From IMG/VR virus record IMGVR_UViG_3300008262_000052: a stretch of 64,000 bases of DNA, one strand, 5' to 3'. Under the pieces are notes generated by a model. The model was given only the letters and a program-made list of their open reading frames with translations, had not been told where the DNA came from and did not search any database. The translations under genes were made by a program, and so were the position numbers. The DNA is from a virus (taxonomy: Duplodnaviria; Heunggongvirae; Uroviricota; Caudoviricetes). This document shows, piece by piece, positions 9,320 through 64,000 of this stretch (position 1 is its first letter; each line of letters begins with the position of its first letter).

Positions 9320-9511
9320 GTGACAGCATACGAACACAAAGAAGCCAATAGATATTATTGGATTGTCAAAGGACACCTGATTCCAGATGCATGGAGTGAA
9401 AAAGACATCATGAGTGTGTACAACGGTTACTTTGAACGTATCTGGGGTAATCATGAAAACGTTGTTCACGAAGACGGGTTCGAAGAAGCATGGAGCAAAA
9501 AAACATGGTAA
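9320..9511 (+). CDS. hypothetical protein
   Basis: Last AT-rich ORF before the GC-rich island. Confidence 0.35.
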   Translation: MTAYEHKEANRYYWIVKGHLIPDAWSEKDIMSVYNGYFERIWGNHENVVHEDGFEEAWSKKTW

Positions 9512-9542
9512 GCACTCAAATAGCCCAGATGGACGCCGCCGA

Positions 9543-12422
9543 ATGAAAGACTTCATTATTCCCTCGGACCGCGATTTTGGCACGCCCTATGTGCGTTCGA
9601 CCGCTACGGTGACCCTGAACATCGACGGGTTCGATGTGACCGTGCCCAAAGACACCAGCATAATGCGAGCCGCCGCCGAGATTGGCATCACAGTGCCAAA
9701 GCTGTGCGCGACCGACAACCTTGAGGCCTTTGGCTCCTGCCGCCTGTGCCTTGTGGAAATCGAAGGCCGCAATGGCACGCCCGCCTCTTGCACCACGCCC
9801 GTTGCCCCCGGCATCCGGGTGAAAACCCAAACCGGCAATCTGAAACAACTGCGTCGCGGCGTAATGGAGTTGTATATCTCGGACCACCCGCTGGACTGCC
9901 TGACCTGCTCGGCCAATGGCGATTGCGAGTTGCAGGACATGGCTGGTGCCGTCGGCCTGCGCGATGTGCGCTATGAGGCGATCGACACCCACTTCCGCGC
10001 CAAGAACAACTCTGGCGAGGCCAATCCGCAGTGGAAAGCCAAGGACGAGAGCAACCCCTACTTCACCTATGACCCGGCGAAATGCATCGTCTGCTCGCGC
10101 TGTGTGCGGGCTTGTGAAGAGGTGCAGGGCACCTTTGCGCTGACCATCGAAGGTCGAGGCTTTGACAGCCGTGTGTCGTTCGGTGCAAAAACCGATGATG
10201 CGCTGGCCTCGGATTGCGTGTCCTGCGGTGCCTGCGTACAAGCCTGCCCGACAGCGACCTTGCAGGAAAAGTCGATCATCGAAATCGGCACACCGGAACG
10301 CTCTGTCATCACCACCTGCGCCTATTGCGGTGTGGGTTGCCAGTTTAAAGCTGAACTGCGCGGCGACGAGCTGGTGCGGATGGTCCCTTACAAGCACGGC
10401 AAGGCCAACCGTGGCCATTCCTGCGTCAAGGGCCGCTTTGCCTATGGCTATGCCTCCCACCAAGACCGCATCCTGTCGCCGATGATCCGCGACAGCATCA
10501 ACGACCCGTGGAAAGAAGTCTCGTGGGCCGAGGCGATGGAATTCGCCGCGAACCGCATGAAGGGCATAATTTCCAAATACGGGCAAAAGTCCGTGGGTGT
10601 GATCACCTCGTCGCGCTGCACCAATGAAGAAACCTATCTGGTGCAGAAACTGACTCGAGCAGTGTTCCTGAACAACAACACTGACACCTGCGCCCGCGTC
10701 TGCCATTCGCCCACCGGTTATGGCTTGGGTCAGACTCTTGGTACCAGTGCTGGAACGCAAGACTTTGATTCGGTAGAATATACAGATGTGGCCATTGTGA
10801 TTGGAGCCAATCCTGCTGTAGGTCACCCGGTCTTTGCAAGCCGTCTAAAAAAACGCCTGCGTAAAGGAGCGAAACTGATAGTCATTGACCCTCGCCGCAC
10901 TGAAATTGTAGTAAGCCCGCATATCAAAGCAGTACATCACCTTGCACTTACACCAGGCACCAACGTGGCCATGGTCACCGCACTGGCGCATGTGATCGTG
11001 ACCGAAAAGCTCTACAACGAAGAGTTCATCCGCACCCGCTGCGACTGGGATGAATTCCAAGACTATGCCGAGTTTGTCAGCCGCCCGAACCATTCGCCCG
11101 AAGCGGTGGAAATCCTAACCGGCGTCAAGGCCGAGGATGTCCGCGCCGCGGCCCGCACCTATGCCACCGGCGGCAACGGCTCGATCTACTACGGTCTGGG
11201 CGTGACGGAACATTCGCAAGGCTCGACCACCGTGATCGGCATTGCAAACTTGGCGATGATGACCGGCAACATTGGCCGTCCGGGCGTGGGTGTGAACCCG
11301 CTGCGTGGCCAAAACAACGTGCAAGGCTCGTGCGACATGGGATCCTTCCCGCACGAACTGCCGGGTTACCGCCATGTGAAGAACGACGATGTACGGGCAA
11401 TCTATGAAAACCTCTGGGGCGTGAAGATCGATAATGAGCCGGGCCTGCGTATCCCCAACATGCTGGATGCCGCCGTGGAGGGCACCTTCAAGGGGTTGTA
11501 CTGCCAAGGCGAAGACATCCTGCAATCTGACCCGGACACCAAGCACGTTGCGGCAGGTCTGGCAGCGATGGAATGCGTGATCGTGCATGACCTGTTCCTG
11601 AACGAGACCGCAAACTACGCCCATGTGTTCTTCCCTGGATCGAGTTTCTTGGAAAAGGACGGCACCTTTACCAACACTGAGCGCCGCATCAACATGGTAC
11701 GCAAGGTAATGGCTCCGAAGCCGGGTTATGCCGATTGGGAAGTCACCCAGTTGTTCGCTAACGCAATGGGTGCCAACTGGAACTACACCCACCCGGTGCA
11801 GATCATGGAAGAGATTGCCATGACCACGCCGTCCTTCGCCGGTGTCAGCTATGACAAGATCGAAGAGATGGGCTCGGTCCAGTGGCCCTGCAACGAAAAA
11901 GCGCCTGAAGGCACGCCTTTGATGCACGTCGATGCCTTCGTGCGTGGCAAAGGTCGGTTCATCAACACCGAATATATTGCCACTGATGAACGCACTGGCC
12001 CGCGTTTCCCGCTGCTACTCACCACGGGCCGTATCCTGTCGCAGTACAACGTGGGCGCCCAAACACGCCGCACAGCGAACAGTATATGGCATACTGAAGA
12101 TTTGTTGGAAATCCATCCCCACGATGCTGAAGTGCGCGGTGTCAAAGAGGGTGATTGGGTGCGTCTGGCCTCACGTGCCGGGGAAACCACCCTGCGAGCA
12201 ACACTGACCGACAAAGTCAATCCGGGCGTGGTCTACACCACCTTCCACCACCCCGACACCCAAGCCAATGTTATCACCACCGATTTCAGCGATTGGGCTA
12301 CCAACTGTCCAGAATACAAGGTTACGGCAGTTCAGGTGTCGCCCTCCAACGGCCCGTCGAAATGGCAAGAGGAATACAACGCTCAAGCCACTCTCTCACG
12401 TCGTATTGCAGCAGCGAAATGA
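9543..12422 (+). CDS. fdsA: formate dehydrogenase alpha subunit (FdsA/FdhF-type with N-terminal 2Fe-2S, 4Fe-4S and molybdopterin domains)
   Basis: N-terminus TVTLNIDGFDVTVPKDTSIMRAAAEIGITVPKLCATDNLEAFGSCRLCLVEIEGR (2Fe-2S NuoG-like). CxxCxxC ferredoxin motifs (CIVCSRCVRACEE, CVSCGACVQACP). Molybdopterin oxidoreductase body about 960 aa. About 60% GC against about 37% for the flanks. The true start is the ATG at 9543, because the upstream part of ORF 9414 is AT-rich phage DNA in frame by chance. Confidence 0.9.
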   Translation: MKDFIIPSDRDFGTPYVRSTATVTLNIDGFDVTVPKDTSIMRAAAEIGITVPKLCATDNLEAFGSCRLCLVEIEGRNGTPASCTTPVAPGIRVKTQTGNLKQLRRGVMELYISDHPLDCLTCSANGDCELQDMAGAVGLRDVRYEAIDTHFRAKNNSGEANPQWKAKDESNPYFTYDPAKCIVCSRCVRACEEVQGTFALTIEGRGFDSRVSFGAKTDDALASDCVSCGACVQACPTATLQEKSIIEIGTPERSVITTCAYCGVGCQFKAELRGDELVRMVPYKHGKANRGHSCVKGRFAYGYASHQDRILSPMIRDSINDPWKEVSWAEAMEFAANRMKGIISKYGQKSVGVITSSRCTNEETYLVQKLTRAVFLNNNTDTCARVCHSPTGYGLGQTLGTSAGTQDFDSVEYTDVAIVIGANPAVGHPVFASRLKKRLRKGAKLIVIDPRRTEIVVSPHIKAVHHLALTPGTNVAMVTALAHVIVTEKLYNEEFIRTRCDWDEFQDYAEFVSRPNHSPEAVEILTGVKAEDVRAAARTYATGGNGSIYYGLGVTEHSQGSTTVIGIANLAMMTGNIGRPGVGVNPLRGQNNVQGSCDMGSFPHELPGYRHVKNDDVRAIYENLWGVKIDNEPGLRIPNMLDAAVEGTFKGLYCQGEDILQSDPDTKHVAAGLAAMECVIVHDLFLNETANYAHVFFPGSSFLEKDGTFTNTERRINMVRKVMAPKPGYADWEVTQLFANAMGANWNYTHPVQIMEEIAMTTPSFAGVSYDKIEEMGSVQWPCNEKAPEGTPLMHVDAFVRGKGRFINTEYIATDERTGPRFPLLLTTGRILSQYNVGAQTRRTANSIWHTEDLLEIHPHDAEVRGVKEGDWVRLASRAGETTLRATLTDKVNPGVVYTTFHHPDTQANVITTDFSDWATNCPEYKVTAVQVSPSNGPSKWQEEYNAQATLSRRIAAAK

Positions 12423-12554
12423 CGAACAAGCATACACAAAAAAGTTCTTGACTGGTTGACTGTTTTAGCATATAAATAACTTGTGATGTTGAAGTTCACT
12501 GAACACGGATGAGACCCGGGGGCGGCACCCGGCAGGTCCACCATAAGAAGACTG

Positions 12555-12716
12555 ATGATGTATGTATATTACGATGAGAGTAAAGACAGAAGCGAAGATC
12601 TTGATTGGAAAAAGTACTGTGATGAACAGGTACCGACTGAGCAAGAACAGATCTTTTGGGGTAATGTAAGTATTATATTTGTTTTAGTATTAGGATTAAT
12701 CGCAGTATTTTTATGA
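12555..12716 (+). CDS. small single-TM protein (53 aa)
   Basis: ATGATG start downstream of a TATAAATA box at 12469. Hydrophobic C-terminus IIFVLVLGLIAVFL. Confidence 0.3.
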   Translation: MMYVYYDESKDRSEDLDWKKYCDEQVPTEQEQIFWGNVSIIFVLVLGLIAVFL

Positions 12717-12900
12717 TGGGCCTGACATAGGATCGATCAACGAACTAGGCAGGATGGAGTCACCGGGATCTAAGCGCCGTTACCGCGAAGAAAATGACAA
12801 CTGCAAATGAAAATTTTGCACCTTCTGAGTTTGCTCTAGCAGCATAACTACAGGGCGCCCGGGGAGAGCGTAGCAACAGAATCTCCTCATAAATACTATT

Positions 12901-28998: not shown

Positions 28999-29250
28999 AT
29001 GAACTGGTTTAGAAATCTATTCTTGAAAGAAGCAAATGAAAACCCCGGAGCATCAGAAATCTCTGTTAGAGTTGCTGAAATTCAGGCCCGCATCGCCGCT
29101 ATTAGAAGCCGCAATGGATGGGACCAAGAACCCTATAAAAATTCTAAAGCACAATCCCAGTATGTGGTGGCGGAAGAAAAACACCCGGTAAAAAATAAAT
29201 CTCAAGAAATGGATGCACTAAAAGCAAAACTGTTAGGAAAAAAATTGTGA
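28999..29250 (+). CDS. hypothetical protein
   Basis: 83 aa ORF coupled to the cyclase gene. Confidence 0.4.
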   Translation: MNWFRNLFLKEANENPGASEISVRVAEIQARIAAIRSRNGWDQEPYKNSKAQSQYVVAEEKHPVKNKSQEMDALKAKLLGKKL

Positions 29251-31289
29251 AAAAACTGTTATTATCACCTGTTTGGAGCATTGTAATTTTAGGGTTGTTG
29301 GGCTGGTTACAGTTCAGTAACCCTGATTTTTTGGAAAGTCTACGTTTACGATATTTTGATCAGTTGATAGTAAATCAAGCACCTGTAGAAAATAACATTT
29401 ATACAGTTAATATAGATGAAGCAAGTATTACTGCTCGCGGTCAGTGGCCTTGGCCAAGAGGCGATTATGCTAAACTAATAGAGGATCTATATGCACGTGG
29501 CGCAGGACTAGTTGTGTTTAACGTGTTGATGAGCGAAACAGACAGAGCAGGACAAGACAGGATACTATCAACTACTATGGGTAATTATCCTGTTGTAGTT
29601 ACAATGTTAGGAACTGAGGAAAATAAAAATGAACCAATCAACCCTGGTGCTAGTATCATTAATAGTGACTTTATTGATCTTATCCCTGCCGTGCCTGGCA
29701 TCACAGCAAACGTGCCTGCCATTGAAAATGCAGCAGTTGGGTCAGGAATTATCAATACCTTTCCAGAAATTGATGGAGTTGTCAGACGTGCTCCGCTAGT
29801 ACTAGAAAGTGGAGGAATACTATACCCTAACGTTACTATGGAAGTGCTTAGAGTTCTAGCAGGGGATCCTAGTTTCCAAATCAAATTATCACCGTTGGGA
29901 GTTGACAAATTACGAATTCCGCAATACGGTGTACTACAAACTGATGGACTTGGTAGAGTATGGTTAGACTGGAGTCAAGGCTTTAGCAGTCACAGTGCAG
30001 CAGAACTACCTGCAGACTTTGCCGGAGGTATAGTATTTGTAGGTCCTACTGCGGCTGGCATTACACAACCAATTGCAACAGCCAAAGGCGGCGTGTGGCC
30101 ACATGAACTACAGGCTATGATGTTAGGCACAGTGTTTAATGCAAGTAACATAGAACGCCCTGCATGGTCACCAGGTGCCGAATTATTAGCATTTGTACTT
30201 GCCGGATTAGCACTAATAGTTGCTGCACGTTGGACTTATGCGGGCATTGGCATTTTTGTAATACTTGTAGGTGGGTCAATCGGTGGTAGCATCTATGCCT
30301 TTGCTACCTACAACTTCTTGATTGATGGATTTTTACCTGCGGCGTTTCTATTGCTTGTAGGTATTATACGTTATGTAATCAAATTTGTAAGTGAGTTCTT
30401 ACAAAAGCAAGCAATCAAGAAACAGTTCGAAGGATATGCATCACCTGCCGTAGTTAAGTTATTGCAAACAAACCCAGATCTTGTCAAGAAAGGCATGAAG
30501 AAAGAAGTAAGCATACTGTTTAGCGATTTACGTGGCTTTACACCATTAGGTGAAAGTTTCGGCGACGATGTTGCAGGACTTACTAAAATAATGAATGGAT
30601 ACATGGATGCTATCACACAGCCTGTGCTAGATGCAAACGGTATGATTATTAAATATATCGGTGATGCAAGTATGCATATACACAATGCACCAGTAGACGA
30701 TCCTGAACATGCAAAGACAGCAGTTGCTACTGGTTTAAAAATGTTACGAGCAGTAGAGAATTTTAATGAAACAGTCATCATACCCCAAGGAAGACCACCA
30801 GTTGGCATGGGCGCCGGAATCAACACAGGTCTCGGATACATCGGAGAAATGGGGTCAACCAAACGTCACAGTTACGACGTACTTGGAGACGCAGTCAGCA
30901 CCGCCGCAAGAATCGAATCAAAATGTAAAGAATACGGCTGCTTATTACTCGTGGGTGGCGCTACAGTAGAACAGTGCAAAGACGAATTCTTCTTCCTCAA
31001 AGTAGATGACTTAGCAGTTAAAGGTAAAACTGTAGGTGTTGCTATCTATACTGTATTAGACGATGTTAAACCAACATGGAAAACCAGTAAAAAACATCAT
31101 GATCAAATGCACAAACTATATCGTATGAAACAGTTTGATGAAGCAATAGAACAGTGTAATTTAATTCGCAGAGCATTTGACGGCAAAATGGAAAAATACT
31201 ACGATATGTGGATTGAACGTTGTGAATACATGAAAACGCAAACATTGCCAGCAGATTGGAATGGCGTGTTTATTGCCCTGACAAAGTAG
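29247..31289 (+). CDS. membrane CHASE2-sensor class III adenylate/guanylate cyclase
   Basis: N-terminal TM, periplasmic CHASE2-like region, three TM helices. Catalytic domain VSILFSDLRGFTPLGESFGDD...IKYIGDASMH...GAGINTGLGYIGEMGSTKRHSYDVLGDAVSTAARIES matches the CYCc pattern (F.D..GFT, GD, RI.S). GTG start. Confidence 0.8.
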   Translation: MKKLLLSPVWSIVILGLLGWLQFSNPDFLESLRLRYFDQLIVNQAPVENNIYTVNIDEASITARGQWPWPRGDYAKLIEDLYARGAGLVVFNVLMSETDRAGQDRILSTTMGNYPVVVTMLGTEENKNEPINPGASIINSDFIDLIPAVPGITANVPAIENAAVGSGIINTFPEIDGVVRRAPLVLESGGILYPNVTMEVLRVLAGDPSFQIKLSPLGVDKLRIPQYGVLQTDGLGRVWLDWSQGFSSHSAAELPADFAGGIVFVGPTAAGITQPIATAKGGVWPHELQAMMLGTVFNASNIERPAWSPGAELLAFVLAGLALIVAARWTYAGIGIFVILVGGSIGGSIYAFATYNFLIDGFLPAAFLLLVGIIRYVIKFVSEFLQKQAIKKQFEGYASPAVVKLLQTNPDLVKKGMKKEVSILFSDLRGFTPLGESFGDDVAGLTKIMNGYMDAITQPVLDANGMIIKYIGDASMHIHNAPVDDPEHAKTAVATGLKMLRAVENFNETVIIPQGRPPVGMGAGINTGLGYIGEMGSTKRHSYDVLGDAVSTAARIESKCKEYGCLLLVGGATVEQCKDEFFFLKVDDLAVKGKTVGVAIYTVLDDVKPTWKTSKKHHDQMHKLYRMKQFDEAIEQCNLIRRAFDGKMEKYYDMWIERCEYMKTQTLPADWNGVFIALTK

Positions 31290-45289: not shown

Positions 45290-45374
45290 GGGAGAGACGC
45301 CTCAAGGTGAGGCAGTGGACTGTAACTCCATCGCGGCAACGCACGGACGGGTTCGATTCCCTCCTCTCCCACCA
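45290..45374 (+). tRNA. tRNA-Tyr(GTA)
   Basis: Anticodon loop CTGTAAC. Long variable arm (GCG-GCAA-CGC). Acceptor GGGAGAG/CTCTCCC. T-stem with 2 mismatches. CCA encoded. Confidence 0.65.
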
Positions 45375-59208: not shown

Positions 59209-59270
59209 ACATACATAGGACGCAAAGAACAACAGTTTAGATGCTCCGAAAATAAAAAAGAAAAAAACAG

Positions 59271-59299
59271 TTGACACAGTAAAAAATATACGCTATGTT
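59271..59299 (+). promoter_or_regulatory. sigma70-like promoter TTGACA-N17-TATGTT with conserved leader
   Basis: Followed at 59323 by ACGCAAGTTACACGCTCTTTGAAAATTTAG, a leader motif repeated at 62069. Confidence 0.5.
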
Positions 59300-59679
59300 A
59301 ACTAAACAAACAGTAACGCAAGTTACACGCTCTTTGAAAATTTAGATCAGTTGTTTTGTTTCGTTTAGAAACTTCAAACAACACCTACATAGACGAAAGT
59401 CGATAATTGTGGGGTAAGTAGAGAATGACTCTACTTACACATGCTAATGAATAGAAGTAAACACGGTTCGAGTCCGTGGTCCGTTGGGTTGCGGTGTGCT
59501 GTTCGAGTCAGCTTAACTACGCGGTGTAGCAAATAGGACGGCGGTCCGCTTGTAGGTGCAAATCCTACACGTTAGCAGTTGTAAGTAGAGTTTATTTACA
59601 CATACACAGATATACTCGCAGAGGGCCGTCCGGAGGTCGTTATGCTAAGTTTCTGTGTAGCTGTAAGTAGAGTTAGTGT

Positions 59680-59774: not shown

Positions 59775-59851
59775 GGACGGTAAGGCACAGTTGGGAGAGC
59801 GTATGCTTTGCAAGCATAATGTCGCCGGTTCGATCCCGGCAGGGTCCACCA
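59775..59851 (+). tRNA. tRNA-Ala(TGC), irregular acceptor
   Basis: D-arm AGTTGGGAGAGC. Anticodon arm TATGC-TTTGCAA-GCATA. T-arm GCCGG-TTCGATC-CCGGC. The acceptor pairs only 5 of 7. Confidence 0.5.
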
Positions 59852-60238: not shown

Positions 60239-60326
60239 GGAAGTGTGGCCGAGTGGTTGATGGCTCTAGTCTTGAAAACTAGCGTACCGCAAGGTACCGT
60301 GAGTTCGAATCTCACCGCTTCCGCCA
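60239..60326 (+). tRNA. tRNA-Ser(TGA)
   Basis: Anticodon arm CTAGT-CTTGAAA-ACTAG. Long variable arm GTACC-GCAA-GGTAC. T-arm GTGAG-TTCGAAT-CTCAC. CCA encoded. Confidence 0.85.
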
Positions 60327-61103: not shown

Positions 61104-61817
61104 ATGCACTTTGTATCAAGCGGATGCTCATTTACATACGACAATCATACTTGGCCCTTTCATTTTGCAAAAAAAATGAAATATGCCCATTACCCAATGG
61201 GATTGGGCAGTAATGGAAATGAGCATATCGCTAGACGTGCAATTTATCAAGTTAATGATTTATTCAAAAACAATGTAGAATCGAAAGATATAGTAGTTGG
61301 GGTTATGTGGAGTGCTGCCAACAGAGCATCATTTTATGTAGAAAACTCATTTGTATTAAATCAATTATCAAAGCCAAACATATCCGAAGCCAGTCACCTA
61401 GCGTGGCCAAAAAATGATCCTGCAGGCAAATGGGTATTGATTAATGCAAGTTTTCCTAGTCGATTTTCAACGAATCATTATAAGATTTATACAAACAACA
61501 CATTTGATTTAATCAGAACCTATGAAAATATTCTAAGATTGCAAAATTACTTGAAAGTAAATAATATAAAATACTTTTTTAGTAATATGAATCAAAGCAC
61601 ATTTGATGAGAGTAATGTCAATACTATGCAAACAGAATATTTAAAAGAAATGGTAGACTGGACAAGATTTGTACCAGTTAAGGGTTGCTACGAATGGTCT
61701 AGAGATAACATGCCCAACGACTTTCCTACACCGGGAGATGATCATCCTTCAGGAAAACAACACGAAGCATTTGCTGAAAATGTGGTTATTCCATTTTATA
61801 ATAATTTGCCGGTATAG
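61104..61817 (+). CDS. SGNH/GDSL-family hydrolase
   Basis: N-terminal HFVSSGCSFTYD (block I-like). C-terminal GDDHPSGKQHEAFAE (block V DxxHP). 237 aa. Confidence 0.6.
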   Translation: MHFVSSGCSFTYDNHTWPFHFAKKMKYAHYPMGLGSNGNEHIARRAIYQVNDLFKNNVESKDIVVGVMWSAANRASFYVENSFVLNQLSKPNISEASHLAWPKNDPAGKWVLINASFPSRFSTNHYKIYTNNTFDLIRTYENILRLQNYLKVNNIKYFFSNMNQSTFDESNVNTMQTEYLKEMVDWTRFVPVKGCYEWSRDNMPNDFPTPGDDHPSGKQHEAFAENVVIPFYNNLPV

Positions 61818-61883
61818 CTCATTTGGTAGAGCAGTTGATTAGTAATCATCAGGTGGGGAGTTCGAATCTCTCTACCGGCACCA
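61808..61883 (+). tRNA. tRNA with anticodon-loop TTAGTAA (apparent anticodon AGT, Thr-decoding)
   Basis: Acceptor GCCGGTA/TACCGGC. D-arm GCTC-ATTTGGTA-GAGC. T-arm GGGAG-TTCGAAT-CTCTC. CCA encoded. Starts 9 nt before the upstream CDS stop. Confidence 0.5.
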
Positions 61884-61930
61884 TTAAATTGTCTACATAG
61901 TGAATTTAATAATCACTACAAACTTAAAAT

Positions 61931-62005
61931 GCGGGTGTAGCTCAGGGGTAGAGCGGCTGCTTGCCAAGCACCAGGTCACGGGTTCGAATCCCGTTACCCG
62001 CTCCA
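61931..62005 (+). tRNA. tRNA-Gly(GCC)
   Basis: Anticodon loop TTGCCAA. Acceptor GCGGGTG/TACCCGC. T-arm ACGGG-TTCGAAT-CCCGT. Discriminator T. CCA encoded. Confidence 0.8.
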
Positions 62006-62034
62006 AAAAAAAATAAAAAAAGATAAAAAAGTGG

Positions 62035-62063
62035 TTGACCTTTGGTGCAACATGCACTATATT
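62035..62063 (+). promoter_or_regulatory. sigma70-like promoter TTGACC-N17-TATATT with conserved leader
   Basis: Followed at 62069 by GTAAGCAAGAAGTTGTTTACACGCTCTTTGATAATTTGG, the same TTACACGCTCTTTGAWAATTT leader as at 59323. Confidence 0.5.
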
Positions 62064-62734
62064 AAACAAGTAAGCAAGAAGTTGTTTACACGCTCTTTGA
62101 TAATTTGGTAAACACTGTGTTTACACAGGTATATTGGGTAGTAGCACTGTCAAGTAACTAGGGTGGTTCCTAGCGAAACAACAGGGCCACACGCTACTGA
62201 CAATAAGTTGAAATGGCAATGCTAACCACTATGTCTATCGACTGACGATAAGATAAACAATATATCGTTGTAAACACAGTAAGATGGGCGGCTTAGCGTC
62301 CACGTAAGGGTAAGTGCAGTAATGCACCCAAAGCAAGGTTTCCTATAAACTTGCGCCAGCAATGGTCCATCTAAGCAAGCCTGAACTAGAGTTGACTCGG
62401 GTACCGAAAGCAACTCCCGTCCGTAGAAAGGCGGTAGGCAGTAAGTTAGGAATAGTGTCCGAAAGGATAGTCGCAGAGCCGGTCGGTGAGCGATAAGAGG
62501 GTTGGCGCCCAAACACTGTTCAGCCAAACTAACGAATGCTGAAAGTTAACAGGTAGTTAACTAGTCTGAGCCCGCAAGCAAAGGCAAGTTAGCATCTTGA
62601 GAGTGGAAGGGTTAGGCCCCGGATACTTAAAAAGACGTTGAGTAGCCCGCAAGGCAAAAGACAGTCGGTGTGTTGTATTTTGCGTCTAACAAGACGTGAA
62701 GCAACTGGGACAGCACATCGAAGTAGGTTCGCAA

Positions 62735-62810
62735 ATAGCTCAGCGGTAGAGCAATTCCATTGAACGGAATCGGCGAAGGTTCAATCCCTTCTTTGATAAA
62801 CAAAAGCGAA
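62735..62810 (+). pseudogene. tRNA-like element with TGA anticodon and no long variable arm
   Basis: D-arm TAGCTCAGCGGTAGAGC. Anticodon arm ATTCC-ATTGAAC-GGAAT. T-arm GAAGG-TTCAATC-CCTTC. The acceptor pairs only 5 of 7 and there is no CCA. Confidence 0.3.
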
Positions 62811-63325
62811 AGACTGTCCCGGTACGTTGTGAAAGGTGGTTAATGCCACACTCGCAAGAGAATGTGGTCTACGGATGCTCGCAAGGCTGATGTAGTTGTT
62901 CGGAAAGATAGCGTAACGGTTTAGCGACTGTGAACTGCTCGCAAGGCAGACGAAAGATAGAAGGACGAGTAGCAACGTGCGACGAGAGAAACGCCACTCT
63001 CCAAAAAAGGCACCACTGGGAGATACAAGATGACCGTAAAAGGCTCTTGTGGATAACGACAGAACGTGGCTCGCAAGGCTAACGGTAATGGTCAAAGGCT
63101 CCTACAGCAAGGCATAATCTCAGCCTATGCAAAAATTAAGTTTTTTTAACTTAACTTGTTGAACAGTTTTCGAGTTCCGACCCACTTGGCTGTAGGCGAC
63201 TACTCCATTTCCGAGACTGTTCAACTAGTTAAGTCTGTTTACACATACATCCCGTAGATGAGGGTCGGCCACCCAAACTTTACTGAAACACGCAATGCGC
63301 TGGGGTGTATGTGTAAACAGAATAT

Positions 63326-63401
63326 TGCGGGGTAGAGAAGCGGCATCTCGACTGGCTCATAACCAGTAAATCGCAGGTTCGAGTCCTGCCCACCGCAACC
63401 A
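63326..63401 (+). tRNA. tRNA with CAT anticodon (elongator Met or Ile2/lysidine type)
   Basis: D-arm GAGA-AGCGGCA-TCTC. Anticodon arm ACTGG-CTCATAA-CCAGT. T-arm GCAGG-TTCGAGT-CCTGC. One extra nucleotide at the T/acceptor junction. CCA encoded. Confidence 0.6.
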
Positions 63402-63626
63402 ATTTTAGCCTGCACCTTGGGGGTGTAAGGGAAGTGAGTCGACCGCGACCCGGCGATATGCTATAGGTTATTGCTAGGCTAATTACTATATTGTTTAAAG
63501 GAGTAAGGATAAAAAACATTCTAGTCCTTACGTAGGTGTAAAAACAGACACATAGTTGTTTGAACGCAGCTGGGCCCGATAAATTTGTACTAGACAAGTG
63601 CTGATGCCACCTTTAAACAACACTTT

Positions 63627-63710
63627 GCCCTAGTGGTGTAATGGTAGCCACGGAAGATTCAAAATCTTTTGCCGCAAGGCGTGGGGGTTCAAGTCCCTCC
63701 TGGGGCACCA
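63627..63710 (+). tRNA. tRNA-Leu(CAA)
   Basis: Anticodon arm GAAGA-TTCAAAA-TCTTT. Variable arm GCC-GCAA-GGC. T-arm GGGGG-TTCAAGT-CCCTC. Acceptor GCCCTAG/CTGGGGC. CCA encoded. Confidence 0.8.
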
Positions 63711-63725
63711 AATAATAAATACTAT

Positions 63726-64000
63726 ATGAAAATATTTGAAGTAGTAGCAAAAATAACCAAAGACGTTGATCCTGAAACTGGTGACAGTACTGTCGGTGCC
63801 AATGTAACTGATTTTAAAAACGAATACAACCGAGTTGTTGTAATGCCTATGAATCAGATCCGATCTAGATTCGAAGGAGACGGTAAAGGTGATACTAAAG
63901 ATGTTGATGCTAGAGCAAATATAAACAGTATTAAAAAACAGATAAAACGAGATATCAGCAAGATACCTCCAATACTAGTAAGAAGAATTCCACGAGAAAA
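63726..64000 (+). CDS. hypothetical protein (5' partial, runs off the window)
   Basis: ATG at 63726 with an open frame to the window end. Confidence 0.4.
   Translation, partial: MKIFEVVAKITKDVDPETGDSTVGANVTDFKNEYNRVVVMPMNQIRSRFEGDGKGDTKDVDARANINSIKKQIKRDISKIPPILVRRIPRE

Follow-up and report, generated by a model that had tools for sequence, protein, structure and literature searches.

An unannotated GOLLD RNA with a tRNA-like linker module in the tRNA cluster of a tailed phage

GOLLD RNAs are giant structured RNAs of phages and prophages, and the published examples combine a 5′ region of ~420 nucleotides (nt) with a 3′ region of ~413 nt and a disordered linker that faces the interior of a cage. 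Published accounts place their genes next to the tRNA islands of phages and prophages, note that some of the genes enclose a tRNA, and report for other members of the family that expression goes up during lytic growth of the phage. The structure of the env-38 GOLLD has been solved (PDB 9MEE) and shows a 14-mer with a 42-nt disordered linker. ROOL, another large ornate RNA found beside phage and prophage tRNA islands, likewise assembles into a nanocage made of RNA alone, inside which a disordered linker lies, but is unrelated to GOLLD in sequence and secondary structure. Here we analyse a locus in IMG/VR record IMGVR_UViG_3300008262_000052, a 64,000-nt stretch of DNA from a virus of the Caudoviricetes (hereafter the window, to which all coordinates refer). 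The interval 62040-63325, which lies between two tRNA genes, had been described in an earlier note, made from the letters alone, as a candidate novel array of non-coding RNA repeats with nothing comparable known to be annotated in phage tRNA regions. Taken as a whole, the interval is very probably best explained as the gene for a single GOLLD RNA of ~844 nt (62283-63126, + strand). The claim of novelty does not stand, in that the region is occupied by an RNA known from the literature to lie near tRNA islands.

A cmscan search of the whole window against Rfam, the first check that the earlier note had proposed, returned a known family: GOLLD (RF02032) at 62665-63126 on the + strand, with 191.7 bits and an E-value of 1.8e-52. 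The Rfam gathering score for this family is 150 bits, and its model describes only the conserved 3′ half of GOLLD. The alignment runs untruncated from model position 1 to 416 of 416, with a minority of pairs marked as non-canonical on the NC line. When the surrounding 61990-63730 was scanned permissively (E up to 1), GOLLD was the sole family other than tRNA to be reported, and the Rfam scan gave no match to ROOL in the window. We regard the identity of the RNA as GOLLD as secure, and this copy is an unannotated new member of the family. The segment 62665-63126 (+) thus corresponds to the conserved 3′ domain, with GCAA hairpins at 62853, 62880, 62940 and 63072. Likeness to described GOLLDs goes beyond the full-model match, and includes the total length of ~840 nt, a separate 5′ domain, a variable linker after the first hairpin of the 3′ domain and the location of the gene within a phage tRNA island.

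Upstream of the model match, 62283-62664 (+) can be assigned by conservation and covariation to a clade-specific variant of the GOLLD 5′ domain, whose 5′ boundary was set where conservation starts and is uncertain by ~5 nt. In local blastn searches of IMG/VR this domain is common to ~35 loci (duplicate contigs included) at 71-99% identity. The closest is a near-identical contig, L031 (98.6% over 640 nt), and a graded series of relatives down to ~71% identity shares window positions ~62285-62645. Comparative alignment, also suggested in the earlier note, revealed abundant covariation. RNAalifold applied to 24 non-identical sequences (the window and 23 viral contigs) gave 92 pairs, 64 of them with compensatory double changes. 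Across the alignment 97.7% of cells are paired, compared with 33-41% when the partners are slid by one to three columns. The same slid controls yield only 15-24 pairs with double changes, and none of 500 shuffles reaches the observed values. Since these counts exceed both the slid controls and the shuffles, we conclude that 62283-62664 is a real structured domain.

The wider distribution of this RNA points to phages. In distant blastn comparisons with phage genomes the matches are confined to the linker and the beginning of the 3′ domain, and the relatives found in this way are the roseophages DSS3_MAL1, MD18, DSS3P8 and V10, the phiCbK-like Caulobacter phages and Sinorhizobium phage Phosso. 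In all seven phage relatives that we fetched, the locus reaches or exceeds the GOLLD cut-off (150.7-186.6 bits), and the phiCbK-like phages are already part of the published GOLLD alignment. A junction pattern derived from the alignment of the phage relatives was found in 43 viral contigs of IMG/VR, as against two contigs, both from metagenome-assembled genomes, among 185,579 one-per-species genomes, and we therefore consider the clade to be phage-borne. Among the IMG/VR contigs that carry GOLLD, five (L011, L012, L013, L017 and L048) measure 357-465 kb, which is the size of jumbo phages, and several related loci hold more than 20 tRNAs within 10-14 kb. The seven GenBank phage records leave GOLLD unannotated: those of Phosso and DSS3P8 list nothing at that position, and the other five list only an element embedded in the RNA, as a tRNA-Arg, tRNA-Gly or tRNA-Lys (2584-2659 in L001, 2598-2671 in L002 and 2094-2165 in L004-L006; accessions MN602268, MT270409, PQ287320, JX100812 and NC_019405).

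The same kind of element is present in the window. A tRNA-like module occupies 62729-62801 (+) in the GOLLD linker J13/15, and in the RF02032 alignment it falls within the model's long unpaired linker. ARAGORN reports it as a 74-nt 'tRNA-Ser(TGA)' at 62728-62801, and it scores 52.5 bits against the Rfam tRNA model. Both programs thus confirm the TGA cloverleaf without a long variable arm that had been read from the sequence. Its anticodon loop is ATTGAAC (62759-62765), its acceptor stem, TCGCAAA/TTTGATA, is mismatched at 2-71 and 3-70, and no CCA is encoded. Serine identity requires a long variable arm, through which SerRS recognises its tRNAs, and ARAGORN finds a canonical 88-nt tRNA-Ser(TGA) elsewhere in the window (60239-60326). 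Given that this canonical tRNA exists and that the module lacks the serine-type long arm, we do not regard the module as an ordinary decoding tRNA. An insert of this type is not new as such, because tRNAs and pseudo-tRNAs in the GOLLD linker J13/15 have already been published, together with a proposal of 'inhibited storage' for the embedded tRNA. A close parallel is the mycobacterial GOLLD, which resembles our locus in having a large tRNA cluster and a tRNA-like element (a pseudo-tRNA or tRNA-Phe) in J13/15. It differs in host lineage and sequences, and in that the module described here has a TGA triplet and is one member of a series in which the homologues bear many different anticodon loops.

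Comparison of this series shows which parts of the module are kept. Among 32 non-identical homologues, canonical pairs make up 127 of 128 in the D stem, 158 of 160 in the anticodon stem and all 160 in the T stem. In the acceptor stem, pairs 4-69 to 7-66 are canonical in 94-100% of the homologues, and the corresponding values for 1-72, 2-71 and 3-70 are 66%, 19% and 53%, so that the stem consists of 4-5 base pairs in nearly all of them. The anticodons vary widely, with at least ten triplets represented (TGA, CTT, TCT, TCC, GAT, TAT, TAG, ATG, TCA and CAA) and some loops of 8 nt. Mean triplet identity is only 0.53 even where two homologues have tRNA bodies that agree to at least 95%. Between phiCbK and Magneto there are five differences over 896 nt, three of which lie in the anticodon loop (P = 4.6e-6). 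For the other pairs the same test gave seven P values of 0.001-0.03 and four of at least 0.06, two of the latter from pairs without any loop difference. Most of the listed loops have T33 and a purine at position 37, and the shape of the loop is therefore apparently kept while the triplet changes. The anticodon loop changes at a far higher rate than the remainder of the RNA, with the body fixed, and this, together with the kept stems and the short acceptor, may be a new observation. The short acceptor, the hypervariable loop and the possible closing helix discussed below, which came from comparing the 32 homologues, were not found in the literature that we searched.

Two readings of the module deserve consideration, and we hold each of them to be improbable at present. 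According to the first, the cloverleaf decodes as a genuine tRNA, which GOLLD stores and which RNase P, RNase Z and CCA addition would release, providing a regulated supply of tRNA. The score of 52.5 bits and the covariation that maintains the D, anticodon and T stems speak for this, as do T33 and the purine at 37 and the precedent that storage has been proposed for the mycobacterial GOLLD with tRNA-Phe. Against it stand the acceptor of 4-5 base pairs in nearly all homologues and the lack of an encoded CCA, a TGA triplet without the long arm in a phage that already has a canonical tRNA-Ser(TGA), and an anticodon that is not conserved between near-identical homologues and sits in some cases in a loop of 8 nt. 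In addition, the pseudo-tRNA embedded in the GOLLD of Mycobacterium reportedly gave no separate transcript.

The second reading, to which we give no greater weight than to storage, takes the linker element for a tethered mimic of a tRNA. Its elbow and anticodon stem are conserved, its acceptor of 4-5 base pairs is possibly continued by TTCG:CGAA, and it would be displayed in many copies in the cage as bait or decoy. The target of such a decoy could be a host factor that recognises anticodon loops, candidates being the anticodon nucleases of anti-phage defence, modification enzymes and the ribosome, and arms-race pressure would then drive the changes in the anticodon loop. The continuation of the acceptor is suggested by GCGAA at 62806-62810 (+), 3′ of the insert, which is complementary to TTCGC at 62728-62732 and could form a helix closing the linker. 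Such a helix would extend the shortened acceptor stack by means of the distal strand and leave no free 3′ end. The pair types seen among relatives are TTCGC:GCGAA, TTGCG:CGCAA and TTGCA:TGCAA, and in 26 of 44 cases the 5′ side of the sequence itself contains the exact complement, compared with 20 of 264 for mismatched types, a count that is only suggestive because relatedness among the sequences confounds it. An intermolecular kissing loop that links L20 with J13/15 has been published for GOLLD, which makes a partner in the 3′ domain plausible as well. In a MAFFT alignment, no convincing alternative partner for the linker GCGA was found in the 3′ domain, where one weak candidate column was seen.

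Expression of the RNA can be sketched from the flanking sequence. The best sigma-70-like promoter in 61800-63800 is TTGACC-17 nt-TATATT at 62035-62063 (+), which agrees at 10 of 12 positions. It is followed by a leader at 62070-62103 (+), in which a small hairpin (62070-62089, predicted fold) precedes the boxA-like sequence CGCTCTTTGATAA (62091-62103). The GCUCUUU core of the leader is shared with the boxA of E. coli rrn (UGCUCUUUAACAA). Exact matches to GCTCTTTRAHAA occur in the window only at 62092 and 59329, in each case just downstream of a promoter-like site. The promoter and conserved leader that had been noticed earlier are thereby borne out, the leader core recurring at 59328-59340. 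A search that tolerated one mismatch in this type of motif found four in the window, a number within chance expectation, since shuffles have a mean of 2.7 and 32 of 100 of them reached at least four. Across related loci the boxA-like motif is present in 13 of 50, and in several of these it lies 20-40 nt upstream of the 5′ end of GOLLD. A second module of this kind, consisting of a promoter, a GCAA-capped hairpin and CGCTCTTTGAAAA, is found at 59270-59340 before the next tRNA cluster, and the motif that it shares with 62035-62103 is CGCTCTTTGA(A/T)AA. The leader CGCUCUUUGAUAA resembles the boxA antitermination leaders of the rrn and lambda-nut type, which bind NusB and NusE, in the core that it has in common with E. 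coli rrn boxA and in its position after a small hairpin near the promoter of an untranslated operon. The resemblance to the rrn boxA is consistent with PMC3177189. The likeness is at the level of the motif only.

On this basis, the transcript would start near 62068 and GOLLD would be the first gene of a unit that continues with tRNA-Met and tRNA-Leu. The boxA-like leader would recruit antitermination of the NusB/NusE type known from rRNA operons and so allow a long untranslated transcript to escape Rho-dependent termination, and an antitermination signal makes sense here because the GOLLD transcript is both long and untranslated. No intrinsic-terminator-like sites were found in 61800-63800, and read-through into tRNA-Met and tRNA-Leu is therefore likely. 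The ends of the transcript would be trimmed at long hairpins that flank the RNA and at the adjacent tRNA.

Three such hairpins can be recognised. Between the leader and the 5′ domain lies a lineage-specific long-stem hairpin of 167 nt (62114-62280, +), built on a 23-nt inverted repeat that is 87% complementary and carrying TGTTTACAC in its arms. Its fold z-score is -3.85, and it is kept in L039 and L015 with compensatory changes in the basal stem. Downstream of GOLLD, a hairpin of ~86 nt with 19-nt arms that are 95% complementary (63149-63234, +) is confined to the closest relatives. It is followed by another of ~86 nt directly 5′ of tRNA-Met (63234-63321, +), with 20-nt arms that are also 95% complementary and TGTTTACAC in one arm. 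The fold z-score of 63120-63330 is -5.39. In L049 the last of these hairpins stands next to tRNA-Met and apart from GOLLD, and we therefore assign it to tRNA-Met as a leader and not to GOLLD. It is speculation that the flanking long hairpins are sites of processing by nucleases. Rfam (E up to 1) offers no family for the leader hairpin, for the two 3′ hairpins or for the spacer at 63402-63626. We considered TGTTTACAC as a general promoter or operator motif and rejected it, since its 7-nt core GTTTACA occurs 21 times in the window, mostly scattered in coding sequence. Five of the 21 copies lie in this 1.3 kb, and four of these five are in the arms of two long hairpins.

By homology with the solved structures, it is on balance likely that the 3′ domains of this copy assemble into a closed shell made only of RNA, the linker module being in its lumen. 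The 5′ domains would cap this shell, and the linker, together with its tRNA-like module, would point inwards. In comparison with the 42-nt linker of env-38, the linker here measures ~90 nt and includes the module. We propose only tentatively that the RNA serves as a helper in the lytic cycle that acts on tRNA or translation, with the tethered module as a stored tRNA or a tRNA mimic.

Several points weigh against this account of the locus as a functional GOLLD gene that encodes a cage. No biochemical function has been established for any member of the GOLLD family, and the minimum free energy of the whole RNA is not significant (z-scores of -1.49 sense and -0.02 antisense). No similarity in sequence between the 5′ domain and that of env-38 could be detected: nhmmer with the clade profile gave no match in the env-38 5′ region, and in a global alignment with env-38 the 5′ domains gave z = 1.0, compared with 4.7 for the 3′ domains. 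This lack of similarity agrees with the published variability of the GOLLD 5′ region, and on account of it a 14-mer like that of env-38 cannot be assumed here. The 3′ domain of the S. agalactiae GOLLD alone forms 8-, 10- and 12-mers. With these alternative assemblies and a different 5′ domain, the stoichiometry is uncertain. The boxA assignment is tentative, being drawn from a 12-nt motif and its position, and the ends of the transcript, its processing, the co-transcription and the antitermination are predictions from sequence.

The reading from which this analysis started, in which the interval is an array of degenerate GNRA-hairpin units derived from tRNA fragments and cut by RNase P and RNase Z into small stable RNAs, now appears very improbable. 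Part of its evidence is sound. The core CGCAAG does occur six times on the + strand of 62040-63325 (62573, 62648, 62853, 62880, 62940 and 63072), about 12-fold more than in dinucleotide shuffles (mean 0.5; none of 2000 reaches six), and the cores are surrounded by short direct repeats. Three copies of GCTCGCAAGGC are present as claimed (62877, 62937 and 63069), although the third had been placed at 63079, which is off by 10, and AGCCCGCAAG is found twice, at 62569 and 62644. The interval does contain a tRNA-like element in its middle, and the variable arm of tRNA-Leu(CAA) is indeed GCC-GCAA-GGC (63673). G+C content had been put at about 48% and comes to 46.2%, which is nevertheless above the 41.9% of the window (49.5% for the GOLLD RNA). 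What could not be recovered is the array itself: of the degenerate tandem units of 60-140 nt, Tandem Repeats Finder at a minimum score of 30 reports nothing, its single hit being an A-run at 62005-62030. The cores are short hairpin caps spaced by 27-205 nt, and the likeness around them ends beyond 10-17 nt.

Moreover, each hairpin has its place in one structure. CGCAAG at 62880 aligns with the consensus CGCAAG loop of the RF02032 model, the copies at 62853 and 62940 cap further model hairpins, that at 63072 is inserted where a fourth has its tip, and the two AGCCCGCAAG motifs (62569-62578 and 62644-62653) are the tips of hairpins in the covarying 5′ domain. The six copies are therefore GCAA tetraloops on six different helices of one RNA, in which both the model and the 5′ domain include long-range pairs and a pseudoknot. 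GNRA tetraloops are generic building blocks of RNA, and the likeness to the arm of tRNA-Leu(CAA), which was the argument for descent from tRNA fragments, amounts to a shared hairpin of this kind; we see no other indication of such an origin. Nor did we find support for processing into several small RNAs as in phage T4, whose species 1 and 2 RNAs are stable, ~140 nt long, co-transcribed with the tRNAs of the phage tRNA cluster and released individually. The locus described here shares with them the encoding of stable non-coding RNA among phage tRNA genes, with no homology claimed, and differs in encoding a single RNA of ~844 nt with a family model in place of small separate ones. What survives of the array proposal is a structured, ORF-free non-coding RNA locus inside a phage tRNA operon, equipped with a promoter and leader of its own, GNRA-capped hairpins and a tRNA-like element that is not canonical, where ORF denotes open reading frame.

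It is just as improbable that the locus is a decaying, non-functional GOLLD remnant carried along in the tRNA cluster. The missing function, the non-significant folding energy and an insert that looks defective as a tRNA would all fit such a remnant, but the full-length model match lies well over the cut-off, compensatory substitutions keep both domains in relatives down to ~71% identity, and the promoter and leader of its own are retained.

The absence of any plausible ORF, as first stated, holds only after testing, in that minus-strand ORFs of 101-105 amino acids do exist in the interval. The longest that we examined (104 codons, 62781-63095, start TTG) is open in most relatives, for which reason a coding test was applied, and in many of them tblastn aligns it over its full length in a single frame. 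A conserved coding frame would have spoken against a non-coding RNA, and this one gave no coding signal: differences from 15 relatives are spread evenly over the codon positions (269/290/253), non-synonymous changes outnumber synonymous ones by about four to one, and amino-acid identity (56-67%) falls well below nucleotide identity (77-82%). Stop-free runs in shuffles average 101 codons, and 36% reach the observed length. The frame is a composition artefact of an RNA that is 59% purine. A small minus-strand protein to which conservation of the RNA would be secondary can be dismissed, since despite the open and alignable frame its length is what composition predicts, its start is TTG, and the same columns bear compensatory base-pair changes.

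The genome around the locus is phage-like, with a ribonucleotide reductase and matches to PHROG families. Among cultured phages it is closest to Methylophilales phage Melnitz (amino-acid identity of 48.6% in one protein) and pelagiphage HTVC008M. A megablast search of 50,697 phage records with 12 kb of the window found nothing, and the phage is therefore absent from that collection at the DNA level. ARAGORN lists 26 tRNAs in the window. Of those that bound the interval, tRNA-Gly(GCC) ends at 62005, 30 nt upstream of the promoter, and tRNA-Met(CAT) starts at 63326, 200 nt downstream of GOLLD. Rfam adds two weak tRNA matches on the + strand that are not in the ARAGORN list, at 45290-45371 (33.8 bits) and 59784-59840 (35.7 bits, model positions 9-63 only), and these may be degenerate or unusual tRNAs. 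ARAGORN also missed a permuted two-piece transfer-messenger RNA (tmRNA) gene at 12444-12891 (+), which matches alpha_tmRNA with 95.6 bits and tmRNA_permuted with 89.2 bits. This gene is 50 kb from GOLLD, whereas the roseophage and phiCbK-like relatives have a permuted tmRNA no more than ~1 kb from theirs. The 225-nt spacer between tRNA-Met and tRNA-Leu(CAA) (63402-63626) has ORFs on the minus strand only (31 amino acids, and 105 amino acids at 63280-63597). L031 and L028 conserve it at 100%, and L009 and L015 at ~76-82% over ~100 nt. Two further genes are unusual auxiliary genes for a phage. One is an ORF of 1002 amino acids at 9414-12422 (+) with a PHROG annotation as a DmsA-like molybdopterin oxidoreductase (E-value 1e-82). 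The other is an ORF of 680 amino acids at 29247-31289 (+) for which Melnitz and HTVC008M have homologues with the annotation adenylate/guanylate cyclase.

With the identification of GOLLD, the label of 62040-63325 should change from 'candidate novel ncRNA array' to 'GOLLD RNA'. The clade to which it belongs supplies a well-sampled variant of the GOLLD 5′ domain that is rich in covariation, and at the level of the motif it ties GOLLD to a leader of the boxA type. Mislabelling of the embedded element as a tRNA inflates the tRNA counts of phage genomes and credits these phages with decoding capacities that are possibly not theirs. Finally, the homologues provide a natural series in which a fixed body is combined with a variable anticodon loop, and the role of the linker tRNA thereby becomes a testable question.

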